Positions 7,677 to 37,341 are shown, numbered from the whole stretch's first letter. The stretch: DNA of 63,016 nt, filler included, from Nitrospirota bacterium (GCA_011620345.1; 9 parts of 9 records of this genome joined end to end with filler, not necessarily neighbours in it), one strand, 5' to 3'. Notes: generated by a model from the letters alone, not told the origin. Translations and numbers: made by a program.

Positions 7677-7776
7677 NNNNNNNNNNNNNNNNNNNNNNNN
7701 NNNNNNNNNNNNNNNNNNNNTTAATTAATTAANNNNNNNNNNNNNNNNNNNNNNNNNNNNNNNNNNNNNNNNNNNN
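7677..7776. other. Artificial contig spacer
   Basis: 100 bp of N with a central TTAATTAATTAA linker. Confidence 0.99.
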
Positions 7777-31210: not shown

Positions 31211-32710
31211 CTAGGCCTTTGCTATCACTTCCTGGCTAGCTCGGCTCCTCCCGGCCCTGTCTATGACGCGGACCTGGTAGGTATGGGCGGTTTCCTTGGC
31301 AAGCGCGTCCGTCACGAAGAATGATTCCAGGCTGGTTTGAGGGACAGCCTGAACCCGCTTGAAAGGCTTGCCGTCTTTTAGGATCTCGTAGAAAGCGAGC
31401 GGCTCGTCACCGGCGTATGCGGTATTCCAAAGAATGCGTACATCCAGGTCTTTCTTGCCGTAGGGCATGTCCAGCTCGACCCTTGCGTTCTTAGGCGCGC
31501 TAAGCCCTTCGTAGGGCCTTTGGAAGTAGTTCGTCGCATTGCCCAGCGCATCTTTGGCCCGGCCCTCGATTGAGCGCAGTTCGGCTTCGGAGAGCGGACC
31601 TTTGAGTTGCGCGGCCTGGATGTTGGCCAGCAGTTGCCGCTCGTTGCCGATCCCCATGATCGCCGTATCCACGCCGGGGATGCTCAAGGAATACCGAACG
31701 GCGAGCTTCGAGGGAAAGGCGTCAGATCCGATTGTGTGGACGACGTCCGAGGGCGCGCTGGAAAATCTTGGAGTCTTGCCGTAAAACGCCCCGTCCGCAA
31801 ACACCTTCATAGCGATGACTCCCATCCCCTTGGCCTTGGCAAGCGGAATGGCGTTGTACTGGTGGTTAAAGTAGAGCCTGTCGTTTGCGTTGATCGCGAC
31901 AAGGAGCGTATCGAGAATCCCTCGGGAATCCTTTTGAATGGCGTACATATGGGCGGGCGAATTCCAGTGCCCCGTAATGCCTATATGCCCGATTAATCGC
32001 TCGTTGCCAGGGTTGAACCCCGTGCGGTTCGTCCCGTCGCGCAGGTCTAAAAGCCCTGCGAGCGCGCCAACAGGCCCTGCCTTGGGGTCTGGGTTCTCCA
32101 AGCCGGCATAGATCGCATCGACATGCTCAAAGCTCTGGATGTTATGGATCTGGACAAGGTCCAGGTAGGCACCTTTAGGGTAATCGCCCCTGCCATCCCC
32201 GAAGATCAAAGAGAGCGAACGCTTGACATCGTCTATGGCGCCCCTGACGCCTTCTCCGTTCGAGCGCGAGCCCGGGCCCAAATCGCCTTCGAACGGCGCC
32301 GTATAGCGCATCATCGTCTTACTTGCCAAAAAGATCTTGCGTCTCAGGGGTTCGTTGTAGACTGGCTCACCGGGGATCAGATCGAGCTTTTGAAAGGCCT
32401 TGCCGAAGTTTGCCTGGCTTGGACCGTAGACGTTCGAGGTGTCGAGGTAGGTCGTACCGAGCATGATCGCCTTCGCGATGAGCGCCACGGGGTCGATCCC
32501 CTCGGGCGTCCACTGGAGTGAGGCTTGGCCGCCCAAACCAAATGTCGTAACGGCTCGGTTCGTTTTTCCCAGCGTTCGGGTAACTAGCGCCCTTGGCCCC
32601 TCTGTCGCCGAGGCAATTCCCCCGAAGAGGTCCCATGGCCTAGCGACCAGGACCGTTCCCAGTCCCAAGCCGTATCCAAAAAACTTCCTCCTTGGCATTC
32701 CCTTGTCCAT
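31211..32710 (-). CDS. Tat-signal aldo/keto reductase with C-terminal FN3-like domain
   Basis: PRRKFF twin-Arg; [28 protein letters not shown]; tail W..AY....Y...[12 protein letters not shown]. Confidence 0.78.
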
Positions 32711-32719
32711 GGTGCTCTC

Positions 32720-33568
32720 CTATGGAGTTGGATCGTAGGCTTCAAAAGCGACGACGACGAGCGTGATGTTGTCGTGTCCCCCCCGGGTGTTGGCCATGTT
32801 TACAAGCTCCGTGGCGATAAGGGGAGCAACCCTGAGCCTGTTGGCCACGTCGGCAACCTCGCCCGGAGGAACGAGATCGCTAAGGCCGTCCGAACAAAGG
32901 ACCAGGCAGCCCTCTCTAGGGATCTCGAACACGCCCGTTTCGGGCTCGATCGTATCGGGGGGCGAGATGCCGAGCGCCTGGAGAAGCACGCCCGTCGCCG
33001 GGTCTTCCTGCTCGTGGGCTAGCTTTGTAGCCCCTGTTTCGTCTACCCAAAGCATGGCAGAATCTCCGACGTTCAAAAAAACGACCGCATCGCCAACGAC
33101 AAGCGCCAACACGAGCGTCGTCCCCATCATCCAAGCAGGCCTTCTGCGCCCCAAAGCAAGGTTTTCTTTGTAAATCTTGTAGGCAAGCCCAAAGCAAATC
33201 CTTCGGATGCGGTTACCCACGCAGGCTGGAAGGCCCGACTCTGGGCCTTTGAATACATCGAGGGGCTTAAGGAGGGCATCGAGCAAGTGACGCTGAAGCT
33301 TGTCCGCTACCAAAGGCCGGCTTGGTTCAGTGTCACCGAGCAGCGGGAACACCTCGGAAACCGGAAGGCCCTCTAGGTACTCCTGCCCCAGAATGGCGGC
33401 GCGCTCACCCTCTGGGTGCCCCCCAAGCCCGTCTAGCACGGCGTAGAGCCCAAGCGGCAGGATACGGCTACCGTCGTCGAGCGTTCGAATGACGTATCGG
33501 TCCTCATTTTTAGCCCTGCGCTTGCCTTGGTCTGTCAAGCAGCTCGTCTGGATGCGAAACCGTTTCAT
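32720..33568 (-). CDS. PP2C-family Ser/Thr phosphatase
   Basis: RAKNED, DGLGG, MGTT, NVGDS, LCSDGL, GGHDNIT. Confidence 0.9.
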   Translation of the reverse strand: MKRFRIQTSCLTDQGKRRAKNEDRYVIRTLDDGSRILPLGLYAVLDGLGGHPEGERAAILGQEYLEGLPVSEVFPLLGDTEPSRPLVADKLQRHLLDALLKPLDVFKGPESGLPACVGNRIRRICFGLAYKIYKENLALGRRRPAWMMGTTLVLALVVGDAVVFLNVGDSAMLWVDETGATKLAHEQEDPATGVLLQALGISPPDTIEPETGVFEIPREGCLVLCSDGLSDLVPPGEVADVANRLRVAPLIATELVNMANTRGGHDNITLVVVAFEAYDPTP

Positions 33569-34560
33569 GCCTGGAGTGGGTCAAGCCCGAGCGCCCGAAC
33601 CATCCGAAGCGTCCTTGAGCCCTCTTGCCCCTTTGCCGTAAGGTAATCACCCAAGAAGGCCGAATCGGCAACTAGAAACCCAAGAGGTTCGAGCACGCCT
33701 AAGTGCAGATCCCTTCCCGCCGCCAAACGAACCTCGGTAGCAGGCAAAAGAAGGCGGAGAACGCAGAGCACGCGAAGGCATTGTTCTGGCTTAAGAGACG
33801 GCGCACCCTCCAGCGGCGTTCCCGGGATGGGGATCAAAAAGTTCACGGGGATCGCGTCCGGCTTGAGTTCTGCAAGGTCTTGTAGCAACCCCGCGAGCTC
33901 TTTTAGGCTCTCGCCTAGCCCCACGATGAACCCGCAGCACAGCTCGAGCCCTCTTTCCTTGACGCGCCTTGCCATTTGGAGCCTGTCTTCGTAGGTATGG
34001 CTCGAGCAGATCCTTGGGTAGACCTCTCTTGGGGCGTTGAGGTTGTGGTTGATGCGGTCGAGCCCGCAGGCCTTTAAAAAATCGAGCGCGGCATCGTCTA
34101 GGAAGCCCGAGGAAAAGCAGGTCTTGAGGTCGAGATCGCGCGCCATGAAAGAAACGGCCTCCCCAATCGCTCGCAAATCAGCCTCTATGGCACCCCGCCT
34201 GGCGATCGCCATGCAAAAACGGTAAGCTCCGCTTGCCTGCGCCTCTTTGGCGCTAGCGATGAGCTCGCTTGCCTTGAGCGGCGCCGAGGGCATAACGACC
34301 GTAGGAAACTTGGAAGACTGGCCGCAGTAGGAGCAATCCTCGCTGCAACCGCCCTTCTTGGCGTTTTCTAAGACATGGAGCTTGAAGCTGTTCCCAAAAT
34401 GCGCCCTCCTTAACCGGATAGCCTCTTTGAGGATGGGCTTGAGCGGCGTTTTTGGGTCCAGGAGGGCTTCGATAAAGCTGGTGCCGAGGGCCGGAATCGA
34501 ACCGGCACGGAGGAACCCTCCGAGGGATTTTAAGTCCCTTGCGTCTACCTGTTCCGCCAC
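33565..34560 (-). CDS. bioB: Biotin synthase (start codon lies inside tRNA-Leu)
   Basis: NAKKGGCSEDCSYCGQS, RFC, NHNL, CCGFIVGLGE, PVNFLIPIPGTPL, RLAAGR, GDYLT; product confident, start uncertain. Confidence 0.85.
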   Translation of the reverse strand: MAEQVDARDLKSLGGFLRAGSIPALGTSFIEALLDPKTPLKPILKEAIRLRRAHFGNSFKLHVLENAKKGGCSEDCSYCGQSSKFPTVVMPSAPLKASELIASAKEAQASGAYRFCMAIARRGAIEADLRAIGEAVSFMARDLDLKTCFSSGFLDDAALDFLKACGLDRINHNLNAPREVYPRICSSHTYEDRLQMARRVKERGLELCCGFIVGLGESLKELAGLLQDLAELKPDAIPVNFLIPIPGTPLEGAPSLKPEQCLRVLCVLRLLLPATEVRLAAGRDLHLGVLEPLGFLVADSAFLGDYLTAKGQEGSRTLRMVRALGLDPLQA

Positions 34561-34566
34561 CCCGGC
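34479..34566 (-). tRNA. tRNA-Leu (anticodon TAA)
   Basis: 88 nt; acceptor GCCGGGG/CCTCGGC-A-CCA, anticodon arm AGGGA-CTTAAAA-TCCCT, variable arm CGGAGG/CCTCCG, T arm GCCGG-TTCGATT-CCGGC. Confidence 0.96.
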
Positions 34567-34567
34567 A

Positions 34568-34574
34568 ACCTCCT
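34568..34574 (-). promoter_or_regulatory. Shine-Dalgarno-like AGGAGGT immediately 5' of tRNA-Leu
   Basis: 7-nt complement of the anti-SD; GGAGG ends 8 nt before the GTG at 34560. Confidence 0.6.
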
Positions 34575-34585
34575 GTTTTGTTTGT

Positions 34586-36028
34586 CTACACGGCGGCGTA
34601 TTGGAGCCTGAGCCCCTTTTTGGCCACGAGATAGTCGTGAATCCCCTTGGCTGCGACCTTTGCCTGCCCCATTGCAGAAATAACGGTCGAACCTCCCGTG
34701 ATGACGTCCCCCGCCGCGAACAACCCGGGGATAGAACTCATGCCCGTTTCGGTGTTCACGACGACGATGCCGCTTTTGGTCAGTTCGAGCCCGGGCGTCG
34801 AGCGGGTAACCAAGGGGTTGATATCGCAGCCGAGCGCTATGATCGCCGTATCACACTCTATGGTCCAGTTGGAACCCTCGATCGGGATGGGCCGGCGCCT
34901 ACCCGAGCTATCCGGCTCCCCCAATGCCATTTCCATGACCTCGATCGCCTTGAGCTTGTAATGGCTATCCCCGATGAATCGAACAGGGCTTGTCAAAAAG
35001 CACGTCTTGACGCCCTCTTCTTCGGCGTGATGGAGCTCTTCTACCCTGCAGGGCGCCTCGGCCCGTGAGCGCCTGTATACGAGCGTGACCGCCTCGGGCT
35101 GAAGCCGGATAGAAGTTCTGGCCCCGTCCATGGCCGCGTCGCCAGCGCCGATGACGACGATGTTCTTTCCGTACTCGATCGGCGTTGCATAGGCCGGGAA
35201 CAAATCCGCTCGCATGAGGTTGAGCCTCGTGAGCCATTCATTGGCCGAGTAGACGCCCACAAGGTTCTCGCCCGGGATTCCGAGCATTTTTGGAAGCCCC
35301 GCACCCGTTCCTAGCAAGATGGAATCGTAGCCCATCTTAAAGATATCTTCGATACTCAGGGCCTTGCCGATAACGGCGTCTTTAAATATCTCCACGCCAA
35401 GGTATTCGAGCGCCTTCAGCTCGGACTCGATGACGTCCGAGGGGAGGCGAAACCGCGGGATGCCATAGTAGAGAACACCGCCAGGCTTGTGCATCGCTTC
35501 AAAAAGCGTCACCCGATGGCCCAAGCGGGCAAGCTCGAAGGCACCCGTGATGCCGGCCGGGCCGGACCCCACGATTGCCACGCTGCAACCGGTCGAAGCC
35601 CCCGGCTTGGGGAGCTCCACACGCCCGGAGAGCCTCTCGAAATCGGCCACGAACCGCTCGATCTTACCGATGCTTACGGGCTCGGTGCGCCTTCCGATCA
35701 CGCAGCTCTGTTCGCATTGCTTTTCTTGAGGGCAGACCCTTCCGCATATGGCGGGCAAGATGTTCTTTTCTTTCAAAACGTGGGCCGCCTCGAGAATCGC
35801 GCCTTCGCCCACCAATTTGACAAACCTAGGGATGTCGATGCCGACAGGGCAGCCCGCAACACAGGAAGGCTTCGGGCATTCGATGCAACGGAGCGCCTCC
35901 TCCTTGGCCTCCTCGAGGCCAAACCCAAGGCACACCTCCTCGAAATTTCGGCTTCGAACCCCTGGCGATTGCTCTGGCGCCTTGTGGCGCGGAATCTTGA
36001 TGCGATCTTTTATGCTTAGGCCTGACAT
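34586..36028 (-). CDS. nfnB: NfnB/SudA (GltD-like) subunit of NADH-dependent ferredoxin:NADP oxidoreductase
   Basis: RCIEC....CVAGCP, CGRVCPQEKQCE, GSGPAG, YGIPRFRLP, YRR, FAAGDV. Confidence 0.88.
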   Translation of the reverse strand: MSGLSIKDRIKIPRHKAPEQSPGVRSRNFEEVCLGFGLEEAKEEALRCIECPKPSCVAGCPVGIDIPRFVKLVGEGAILEAAHVLKEKNILPAICGRVCPQEKQCEQSCVIGRRTEPVSIGKIERFVADFERLSGRVELPKPGASTGCSVAIVGSGPAGITGAFELARLGHRVTLFEAMHKPGGVLYYGIPRFRLPSDVIESELKALEYLGVEIFKDAVIGKALSIEDIFKMGYDSILLGTGAGLPKMLGIPGENLVGVYSANEWLTRLNLMRADLFPAYATPIEYGKNIVVIGAGDAAMDGARTSIRLQPEAVTLVYRRSRAEAPCRVEELHHAEEEGVKTCFLTSPVRFIGDSHYKLKAIEVMEMALGEPDSSGRRRPIPIEGSNWTIECDTAIIALGCDINPLVTRSTPGLELTKSGIVVVNTETGMSSIPGLFAAGDVITGGSTVISAMGQAKVAAKGIHDYLVAKKGLRLQYAAV

Positions 36029-36861
36029 GGGCTCTGCTCCTTTTGTTTGAGGTACTCCTCCAGCGCCATACGCTCTTTTCCGGCGTACATCCGCTGCCTG
36101 GCAACAAGCTCGTCGTAGTCTACGTCATGGCCGCTGAATTCCGGCCCGTGGATGCATGAAAACTTCGTCTCCCCGCCCACCGTGACCCGGCAGGCCCCAC
36201 ACATGCCCGTACCGTCCACCATCAGCGTGTTGAGGCTGACCATCGTCGGGATTCCGATAGGTTTTGTCATGTCAGAAACGGCCCGCATCATCGGAACCGG
36301 CCCGACGGCGACGACGTAATGCACCGGCTCATCCTCGAGAATGCCCTTCAGCGCGTCCGTTACGAGCCCTTGCATGCCGGCGCTGCCGTCGTTGGTCGTA
36401 ATAAGCAATCTATCAAGAGCCGCTTCAAGCCTGTCCGCGAAGATGAGCAACTCTTTCGTTCTGGCCCCGACGATGCCGTAAACCTTGTTGCCTAGCTCTT
36501 TGAGCTTCCTTCCCATCGGGAGGATCGCCCCGGACCCATAGCCTCCGCCGATCAGAACGCACGTTCCAAACTTTTCGGCGTGGGTTGGAACCCCCAAGGG
36601 CCCTACGACGTCCAAAAAGCTATCCCCTGCTTGCAAGTCGTAGATCTCGTAGCTCGTCCTGCCGACGGCCTGTACAATCAGCTCGAGCGTGCCGGCCTCG
36701 CGGTCAAACCCGCAGATGGACAGGGGAATCCGCTCGCCCTTTTCGTCCACCCGGACGATTACGAACTGGCCCGGCTGCACCTTTCGGGCAACCAACGGGG
36801 CCTCAATTTTAATATGGACCGTTTTTGGTGCAATCTCTTGGCGTGTAAAGATTTGGAACAC
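36016..36861 (-). CDS. nfnA: NfnA/SudB subunit
   Basis: PGQFVIVR..EKGERIPL, VVGPLG, GPVPMM, MVDGTGMCGACRV; GTG start after GAAGGAG. Confidence 0.9.
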   Translation of the reverse strand: MFQIFTRQEIAPKTVHIKIEAPLVARKVQPGQFVIVRVDEKGERIPLSICGFDREAGTLELIVQAVGRTSYEIYDLQAGDSFLDVVGPLGVPTHAEKFGTCVLIGGGYGSGAILPMGRKLKELGNKVYGIVGARTKELLIFADRLEAALDRLLITTNDGSAGMQGLVTDALKGILEDEPVHYVVAVGPVPMMRAVSDMTKPIGIPTMVSLNTLMVDGTGMCGACRVTVGGETKFSCIHGPEFSGHDVDYDELVARQRMYAGKERMALEEYLKQKEQSPCQA

Positions 36862-37020
36862 CGCATGGACTCCTTCTGGCGGGTTTGGTTCAAATGGGGT
36901 AGAATGAACTGCCCTATTAAATAAAGAAACGATGGCATTGGCCTTTGCAATATTTTGAGATTTTGAGTTTATTGTAGCAGGTCTGTCCAACCCTTGACAA
37001 CGCGGTCGTTTTACTATGGC

Positions 37021-37071: not shown

Positions 37072-37148
37072 GTCCCCATCGTCTAGACGGCCCAGGACAC
37101 AGGCCTTTCAAGCCTGAAACGGGGGTTCGAATCCCCCTGGGGACGCCA
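37072..37148 (+). tRNA. tRNA-Glu (anticodon TTC)
   Basis: GTCCCCA/TGGGGAC-G-CCA; anticodon arm CAGGC-CTTTCAA-GCCTG; GGTTCGAATCC. Confidence 0.96.
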
Positions 37149-37152
37149 TTTT

Positions 37153-37227
37153 GGGCCGTTAGCTCAGTGGCAGAGCATCTGCCTTTTAAGCAGAGGGTCG
37201 CTGGTTCGAATCCAGCACGGCTCACCA
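37153..37227 (+). tRNA. tRNA-Lys (anticodon TTT)
   Basis: GGGCCGT/ACGGCTC-A-CCA; anticodon arm TCTGC-CTTTTAA-GCAGA; GGTTCGAATCC. Confidence 0.96.
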
Positions 37228-37241
37228 TTCTCTTTTTTCAT

Positions 37242-37341
37242 NNNNNNNNNNNNNNNNNNNNNNNNNNNNNNNNNNNNNNNNNNNNTTAATTAATTAANNN
37301 NNNNNNNNNNNNNNNNNNNNNNNNNNNNNNNNNNNNNNNNN
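37242..37341. other. Artificial contig spacer
   Basis: 100 bp of N with TTAATTAATTAA. Confidence 0.99.

Follow-up and report, generated by a model that had tools for sequence, protein, structure and literature searches.

A biotin synthase gene whose translation probably begins within a tRNA-Leu(UAA) gene in a Nitrospirota bacterium

The stretch of DNA analyzed here, referred to as the window, comprises 63,016 nucleotides (nt), filler included, from a Nitrospirota bacterium (GCA_011620345.1; nine parts of nine records joined end to end). The lineage is uncultured and has a small genome. The window contains a biotin synthase gene, bioB, whose open reading frame (ORF) runs through a tRNA-Leu(UAA) gene. 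All features of this locus, namely the operon genes, tRNA-Leu and bioB, lie on the minus strand of the window, in the order nfnA-like, nfnB/gltA-like, tRNA-Leu, bioB and PP2C (Table 1). The bioB frame has 331 codons, extends from GTG (34560-34558) to TGA (33567-33565; ORF 33565..34560) and is joined to the tRNA 3' end without a gap or frame break. An earlier note, made from the sequence alone, had described the tRNA as intact and carrying an encoded CCA. This description agrees with an ARAGORN call, an Rfam RF00005 score of 57.1 bits (gathering score 29) and an acceptor stem in which 7 of 7 positions are paired, one of them as G-U; the discriminator is A73, and the CCA was read from the sequence. 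The note had also pointed to an overlap of the bioB stop with the start of the PP2C-like gene. This overlap (ATGA, 33568-33565) is present, and a search for a Shine-Dalgarno (SD) sequence upstream of the PP2C-like ATG found none. Codon usage of the bioB frame includes 5 TTA and 6 TTG codons.

The junction between the tRNA and bioB is not an assembly artefact, a concern raised in the earlier note. A second public contig (L081), whose independence from the window assembly is not established, has an identical junction, and the same arrangement, with the leader GGGAGGT in the place of the SD, was found in L001, which is contig C54 of the metagenome-assembled genome "Nitrospirae bacterium UBA2233" (G001). 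This genome of 1.9 Mb, whose BioB shares 95% amino acid (aa) identity with that of the window, served as the genome-level stand-in for the window and is the phylum's sole representative in the collection searched. The tRNA-bioB stretch, or part of it, is present in twenty run rows belonging to 12 studies; the runs are metagenomes from oil fields, tailings, soil and sediment. Among the Logan contigs of four runs, the tRNA 3' junction is bridged in two (X3 and X20) and the 5' junction in two (X3 and X6); no single record in these runs spans leader, tRNA and bioB, and records 17 and 23 of X3 share an overlap of 30 nt. The contigs break inside the tRNA because tRNA words are common to other organisms, with depth values as high as hundreds to thousands in the tRNA bins. 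Full-length 331-aa calls with identical tRNA-encoded first 28 residues are found in both protein clusters, the one at 95% with 18 members and the one at 86% with 2. Relatives thus keep both junction and frame, a point on which the earlier note had sought evidence, down to 86% aa identity: the junction is in frame, with zero indels, in every full-length member, namely the window, L001 and proteins P0001, P0002, P0129, P0130 and P0132-P0135. The contigs of the 86% (P0002, P0135) and 54% (P0004) relatives were not among the matches listed in the genome and metagenome contig scans. The tRNA itself is 98% identical to that of the window in G001 and 91% identical in the distant relative G022.

Several properties of the encoded protein indicate that bioB is functional. 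The match to TIGR00433, the NCBIfam BioB equivalog, scored 311.2 bits (cut-off 225) and aligned residues 35-326 with profile positions 14-306 of 307, in keeping with the earlier statement that BioB sequence begins soon after the CCA. Profile positions 1-13 have no match in the window BioB, and a complete BioB N-terminus with its own start codon was not found in the window gene. The cysteines of the radical-SAM CxxxCxxC motif (C72, C76 and C79) were invariant across 81 aligned sequences, as were C116, C148, C208 and R278, which align with Cys or Arg of Escherichia coli BioB (PDB 1R30). After the tRNA, the window and L001 differ by 25 synonymous and 16 non-synonymous changes, corresponding to a dN/dS of 0.19 (binomial p = 7e-7 versus neutrality). 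G001 possesses one bioB-like match, a second match being a radical-SAM relative of 24% identity; bioA (539 bits) and bioD (162 bits) are likewise present, each over its cut-off. Judged by these sequence comparisons, bioB is a working gene under purifying selection.

The earlier note had offered the alternative that bioB is a 5'-truncated pseudogene left by recombination at the tRNA. Such a remnant would be untranslated or useless, with biotin being scavenged. Although tRNA genes are common recombination sites, bioB is without a start of its own, some seven ancestral N-terminal codons seem to be replaced by tRNA sequence, and the closest outside homologues hint at acquisition, a remnant is difficult to reconcile with the dN/dS value, with a frame that shows no stop or indel down to 86% identity, and with the retention of the radical-SAM cysteines and of the four further residues, which we take to be the counterparts of the 2Fe-2S ligands of E. 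coli BioB. The presence of bioA and bioD alongside this sole bioB, and the stop-start coupling of the downstream gene, also speak against it. Given the purifying selection on bioB, the pseudogene alternative is highly improbable.

The resident tRNA gene appears to be older at this site than bioB. ARAGORN, applied to the stretches around 38 Rfam matches in G001, identified 37 tRNAs, among which the Leu tRNAs are UAG, CAG and one UAA. The tRNA-Leu(UAA) at bioB, being single in G001 and orthologous by synteny, is best regarded as the functional copy. In G022, a glutamate-synthase-like gene is followed by the tRNA-Leu(UAA) and then by pheS. Since the same upstream gene and tRNA are found there, the gene-tRNA pair would be old and bioB a newcomer on its 3' side. 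On this contig of G022 (C34; L191 2156-2260), the pheS ATG lies 8 nt past the CCA of tRNA-Leu(UAA), with no purine-rich SD between them; tight packing of a tRNA and a coding sequence (CDS), with the ribosome site in the tRNA 3' end, may be commoner than annotated. The 54% relative P0004 (309 aa) has its own Met start at the position of codon 23, which lies inside the tRNA here, and this suggests that about seven ancestral N-terminal BioB codons were replaced by the tRNA 3' end. Outside the lineage, BioB has its closest homologues among planctomycete-like sequences (45-48% identity), whereas BioB in the genomes offered as G001 relatives reached at most 39%; this difference hints that bioB was acquired horizontally, landing beside the tRNA.

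The number of codons at which translation of bioB could start is small. As the earlier note had observed, no ATG, GTG or TTG separates the tRNA from the radical-SAM motif: codons 2-72 of the window bioB contain none of them, and the near-cognate codons in this interval are ATT22, ATC30, CTG34, ATC43 and ATC48 only. The first later ATG corresponds to M90 in the window and to M117 in L001, both past the radical-SAM cysteines. The haplotype of X6 record 30, which has 13 differences and matches P0001 and P0129, carries GTC in place of ATC30 and TTC in place of TTT29; ATC30 is therefore an internal Ile/Val residue and not a start. ATC43 and ATC48 are replaced by Leu in P0002. The earlier note had considered that relatives might have an ordinary start downstream of the tRNA, and none was found in any haplotype with the window residue at codon 53. 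In the A53V haplotypes (P0002, P0123, P0134 and P0135), an in-frame GTG53 stands straight after AAGGAGG (window 34402-34413, codons 50-53), and the IMG-sourced P0123 (279 aa) begins there. GTG53 was ruled out as a general start, as it is not found in the window or L001, has zero spacing after GGAGG and would cost the confidently modelled helix 40-55. Entry into bioB from the upstream gene by frameshifting or readthrough was also dropped; the frames differ, and there was no support for it. The remaining candidates are GTG1, which has a strong SD at ideal spacing, and ATT22 and CTG34, which have no SD. Two of these three lie inside the tRNA gene, and translation of bioB probably begins there.

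The same ambiguity is reflected in the public records, in which this one gene has five product lengths (331, 310, 279, 242 and 215 aa), constituting an annotation blind spot. The IMG-sourced products of 279, 242 and 215 aa, with their later starts, appear to arise where gene calling excludes the tRNA. Since the products of 242 and 215 aa are without the radical-SAM motif, biotin synthesis in this candidate phylum could be mistaken for defective in metabolic reconstructions.

Evidence for GTG1 comes from the sequence that precedes it. The AGGAGGT that the earlier note had placed 8 nt from the GTG is indeed found at this spacing and is, in addition, specific to the lineage. Among the 28 tRNA-Leu(UAA) loci of G001 and relatives, one has an SD at most 15 nt upstream; no SD was found in the 15 nt before tRNA-Leu(UAA) at any of the 27 loci of other genomes, including that of G022, which has the same upstream gene. 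Across the 37 tRNAs of G001, an SD within about 12 nt was found only at tRNA-Leu(UAA), three others having the motif 15-30 nt away. The SD before tRNA-Leu(UAA) is thus lineage-specific. GGAGG itself occurs 99 times per strand in the 63 kb (about 1.6 per kb per strand), and a strong SD is present on at least 20 of 50 long ORFs of the window, including the operon's other uncoupled genes. A naive ORF scan was applied to loci followed on the same strand by an open frame of 80 codons or more (L227 itself and the masked L252 left out, the nearer frame taken where two were listed); 16 other loci have a canonical start at +2 to +186 nt after the tRNA, and the first one at the UBA2233 locus is at +266. 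The tRNAs of the window and L001 differ at two positions, both synonymous in the ORF frame. This pattern was dropped as evidence, as about 7 of 15 tolerated single changes in the variable arm are synonymous (hand count) and two of two would arise with a chance of about 0.2.

The AlphaFold2 (AF2) model has a predicted local distance difference test (pLDDT) score of 40 for residues 1-10, 52 for 11-20, 71 for 21-30 and at least 94 for 31-100, and the alignment with the solved E. coli structure begins at residue 38. The tRNA-encoded segment would accordingly be, in this model, a floppy extension on a normal core; the model does not discriminate among the candidate start sites. A search with residues 1-40 retained 2 of 12 candidates, both from the known clusters, and revealed no other family fused to the tRNA-encoded peptide, a 40-aa query being weak in a large database. 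Translation could instead start weakly 3' of the tRNA, where a near-cognate CUG (codon 34) or a different non-canonical codon would serve without an SD, the SD-like leader then being the 5' strand of a leader-trailer helix or a product of chance. The window, L001 and the X6 variant all have CTG34, and Leu34 is found in all full-length members. The TIGR00433 match from residue 35, the 1R30 homology from residue 38 and the confident AF2 model from about residue 31 would all suit such a product, and residues 29-33 are more variable than the rest (F29S, I30V, A32N/S), as if untranslated or unconstrained. Minimum free energy (MFE) and centroid folds of the window and L001 pair the leader with codons 32-34, but overall these folds are no stabler than shuffled sequences (z = -1.1 and -0.04). 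Moreover, no purine-rich SD is present in the 15 nt before CTG34, whereas the operon's other genes have an SD or are stop-start coupled, and CUG without an SD gives very poor initiation in the bacteria tested. The 18 nt from CCA to CTG34 are free of indels in every haplotype, and the spaced, lineage-specific SD would be left unexplained. A start at CTG34 is therefore considered unlikely. If it were the start, bioB would be a natural case of an essential-pathway gene living on a non-canonical, SD-less start after 5' truncation.

The third candidate, AUU at codon 22 in the T-loop of the tRNA, would yield a BioB of 310 aa with an N-terminal length like that of the 54% relative. The NCBI-sourced P0124 (310 aa) begins at this codon, P0004 (309 aa) begins one residue later in the alignment, and position 1 of the TIGR00433 profile would fall near residue 22. 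ATT22 is also fixed, because it corresponds to tRNA nt 58-60. However, the P0124 start is most likely a choice of automatic annotation, and there is no SD at usable spacing, the nearest GGAGG lying 19 nt upstream in the window and not being kept in L001. AUU starts are rare and weak, and this codon lies deep in the folded tRNA. Initiation at ATT22 is thus regarded as distinctly improbable.

The reading preferred here is that ribosomes initiate bioB at the GTG within the tRNA, using operon transcripts that are still unprocessed, with a probability of about 0.5 as estimated from the sequence evidence. The points counted in its favor are the absence of a canonical start in codons 2-72, the spaced, lineage-specific SD, the selection acting on a sole bioB, the frame-true junction, the exclusion of ATC30, ATC43 and ATC48 as starts, the lack of a promoter-like or terminator-like site in between and the stop-start-coupled next gene. 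In consensus scans, the tRNA was not preceded by a promoter-like site, and terminator-like sites between the operon genes were absent as well; the only strong minus-strand promoter-like site is found ahead of the operon (37000-36971; 10 of 12 matches with TG) and overlaps with a site of 9 of 12 matches. In the MFE and centroid folds of leader, tRNA and trailer, the cloverleaf was recovered in both the window and L001. A closing helix is predicted between the leader and codons 32-34: CAGGAGG pairs with CCUCCUG in the window, and CGGGAGGUU with AACCUCCUG in L001. Two haplotypes form the basis for SD conservation and leader-trailer covariation, and the stability of the folds against shuffles was unremarkable.

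What is demonstrated comprises the anatomy and its conservation, the selection that acts on bioB and the restriction of the SD to this lineage; from these we infer a start site, a coupling and an order of events. In this scheme, bioB would have been joined to the 3' end of a resident essential tRNA-Leu(UAA), losing its own start and first few codons, and the fusion would by chance have placed bioB in the frame of the generic GUG (tRNA nt 7-9). The SD would then have arisen in the 19-nt spacer 5' of the tRNA. Initiation at the GUG would take place on RNA that is still uncut by RNase P and unfolded, the likeliest moment being during transcription, when the 3' acceptor strand is yet to be made. 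Ribosomes that end translation 25 nt upstream may reinitiate at the GUG (termination-reinitiation coupling), and a terminating ribosome would melt the pairing of the GTG with the end of the upstream gene. The first 28 BioB residues would form a tRNA-encoded extension on a normal core, and the frame predicts a junction-spanning tryptic peptide of residues 19-37, AGSIPALGTSFIEALLDPK. Afterwards, the cloverleaf and the leader-trailer helix, in which the SD pairs with CCUCCUG, would form, RNase P would remove the SD, and tRNA-Leu would mature. The fullest version of this proposal is tentative and somewhat doubtful: an essential elongator tRNA would double as the first 28 codons of bioB, nascent GUG initiation by ribosomes from the upstream ORF would precede the cloverleaf, pairing of the SD with CCUCCUG and the RNase P cut would follow, and a single promoter would, by kinetic partition, supply much tRNA and a trickle of BioB.

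A number of observations weigh against initiation at the tRNA-embedded GTG. The earlier note had used the open frame and the GTG at nt 7-9 as evidence. Both are present, but nt 7-9 of tRNA-Leu(UAA) are GTG in 19 and ATG in 4 of the 28 genes of G001 and relatives, and 23 of them have no stop in the corresponding frame across the tRNA. These features are generic to tRNA-Leu(UAA) and therefore no evidence of adaptation, so that beyond the SD the sole specific feature is a 1-in-3 frame match. Cleavage by RNase P would part the SD from the GTG, which would also be buried in the acceptor stem. The fold predicted for the nascent RNA (window 34558-34598, minus strand) has the final codons of the upstream gene (CGCCGCC) base-paired to the 5' strand of the tRNA, GTG included. 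The interior of this predicted hairpin holds the SD region, which is mostly unpaired (z = -1.7, weak). The tRNA-encoded residues are of low confidence (pLDDT 40-52 for residues 1-20) and unneeded for the fold, and a shorter product would suffice, given that homology begins at residue 38 and that the first residue of P0004 aligns with codon 23. Since cells require very little BioB, inefficient initiation at a near-cognate codon might meet the demand. Selection on the leader could instead concern its role as one strand of the predicted leader-trailer helix. The four RNA run rows contain next to none of the sampled words, and no listed run carrying the locus is RNA; the switch between mature tRNA and translatable mRNA that the earlier note suggested is accordingly hypothetical. 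Finally, the comparative depth is shallow, because G001 is the sole genome of its phylum in the collection and the 86% lineage is represented by protein sequences.

Table 1. Positions of the tRNA-Leu, bioB and neighboring features in the window
Feature	Position	Strand	Remarks
Upstream NADPH-dependent glutamate-synthase-like (NfnB/SudA-type) subunit gene	34586..36028	-	TIGR01316 550 bits, cut-off 472
TAG of the upstream gene	34588-34586	-	25 nt before GTG, 19 nt from tRNA 5' end
Spacer of 19 nt, upstream stop to tRNA	34567..34585	-	Holds Shine-Dalgarno AGGAGGT
Shine-Dalgarno AGGAGGT	34574-34568	-	8 nt from GGAGG to GTG
tRNA-Leu(UAA), class II, long variable arm, encoded CCA	34479..34566	-	ARAGORN; Rfam RF00005
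GTG, tRNA nt 7-9	34558..34560	-	Sole canonical in-frame start ahead of radical-SAM motif
ATT, codon 22, in tRNA T-loop (nt 58-60)	34495..34497	-	P0124 begins here; no SD at usable spacing
Codons 30-34, just 3' of tRNA	34459..34473	-	ATC30 34473-34471; CTG34 34461-34459; CCUCCUG 34465-34459
bioB coding part 3' of tRNA, codons 29-331	33565..34478	-	TIGR00433; CxxxCxxC C72, C76, C79
PP2C-like phosphatase gene	32720..33568	-	Stp1 model 103 bits, below cut-off 230

Further observations concern the surroundings of this locus. The NfnA/SudB-like gene (window 36016-36990, minus strand) is listed with a TTG start that overlaps the promoter-like site ahead of the operon (region 36960-37000). Residue 45 is the first in the family match, and translation probably starts about 40 codons further downstream. 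The last gene of the apparent operon (window 31211-32710, minus strand) encodes a protein of 499 aa whose N-terminal RRKFF, read from the translation, resembles a twin-arginine signal. A tRNA-Glu(UUC) and a tRNA-Lys(UUU), 4 nt apart (window 37072-37227, plus strand), are divergent from the tRNA-Leu/bioB operon and are kept in UBA2233 (L001 3323-3478). The window also contains 16 runs of 44 N (704 N) in pairs about 7.3 kb apart, such as 7677-7720 with 7733-7776 and 37242-37285 with 37298-37341, one pair standing directly after the tRNA-Lys; these runs look like masked stretches and not like biology.

The co-transcription of tRNA genes with mRNA is well established, as in the tufB operon of E. 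coli. A related case is the secG-leuU co-transcript (PMC2241853). In such operons, as is proposed here, the tRNA lies within a transcript of protein genes and is released by RNase P and 3' processing. In operons of the tufB and secG-leuU type, however, the SD and the start of the CDS lie outside the tRNA, whereas the only canonical start and SD of bioB flank or lie in the tRNA 5' end. Processing and initiation would therefore compete for the same nucleotides, and if GUG is the start, the competition of RNase P and tRNA folding with the ribosome would become testable on a natural substrate. Same-strand overlaps of tRNAs and coding sequences exist in animal mitochondria, where tRNA punctuation operates and excision sets the mRNA ends. 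At the bioB locus, too, one DNA stretch would serve a tRNA and a CDS, but the mitochondrial overlaps are organellar, have no SD-led start and usually comprise few nt, whereas up to 82 of 88 tRNA nt, or 27 1/3 codons, would be shared here, in a free-living-type bacterium. Genes 38 and 25 of phage T4 have split ribosome-binding sites, in which RNA structure bridges the spacing between SD and start. The bioB locus resembles them in having a stable structure between SD and coding region, leader SD and trailer meeting at the base of the acceptor stem in the predicted folds; in contrast, the predicted pairing here sequesters the SD and does not present it, and a whole tRNA is not known to be looped out of a ribosome-binding site.

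A full-text literature search found no bacterial start codon inside a same-strand functional tRNA. RNAs with two roles are a further parallel: tmRNA and dual-function small RNAs (sRNAs) such as SgrS and RNAIII are alike in combining a structural or adaptor role with a messenger role in one RNA. RyhB/RyhP is reported to belong with the dual-function sRNAs (PMC5331693). In tmRNA and dual-function sRNAs these functions reside in separate segments or act in trans, whereas at the bioB locus the elongator tRNA sequence itself would be translated; if GUG initiation is true, this would be, within the literature searched, the first bacterial functional elongator tRNA that is also translated within a conserved enzyme.

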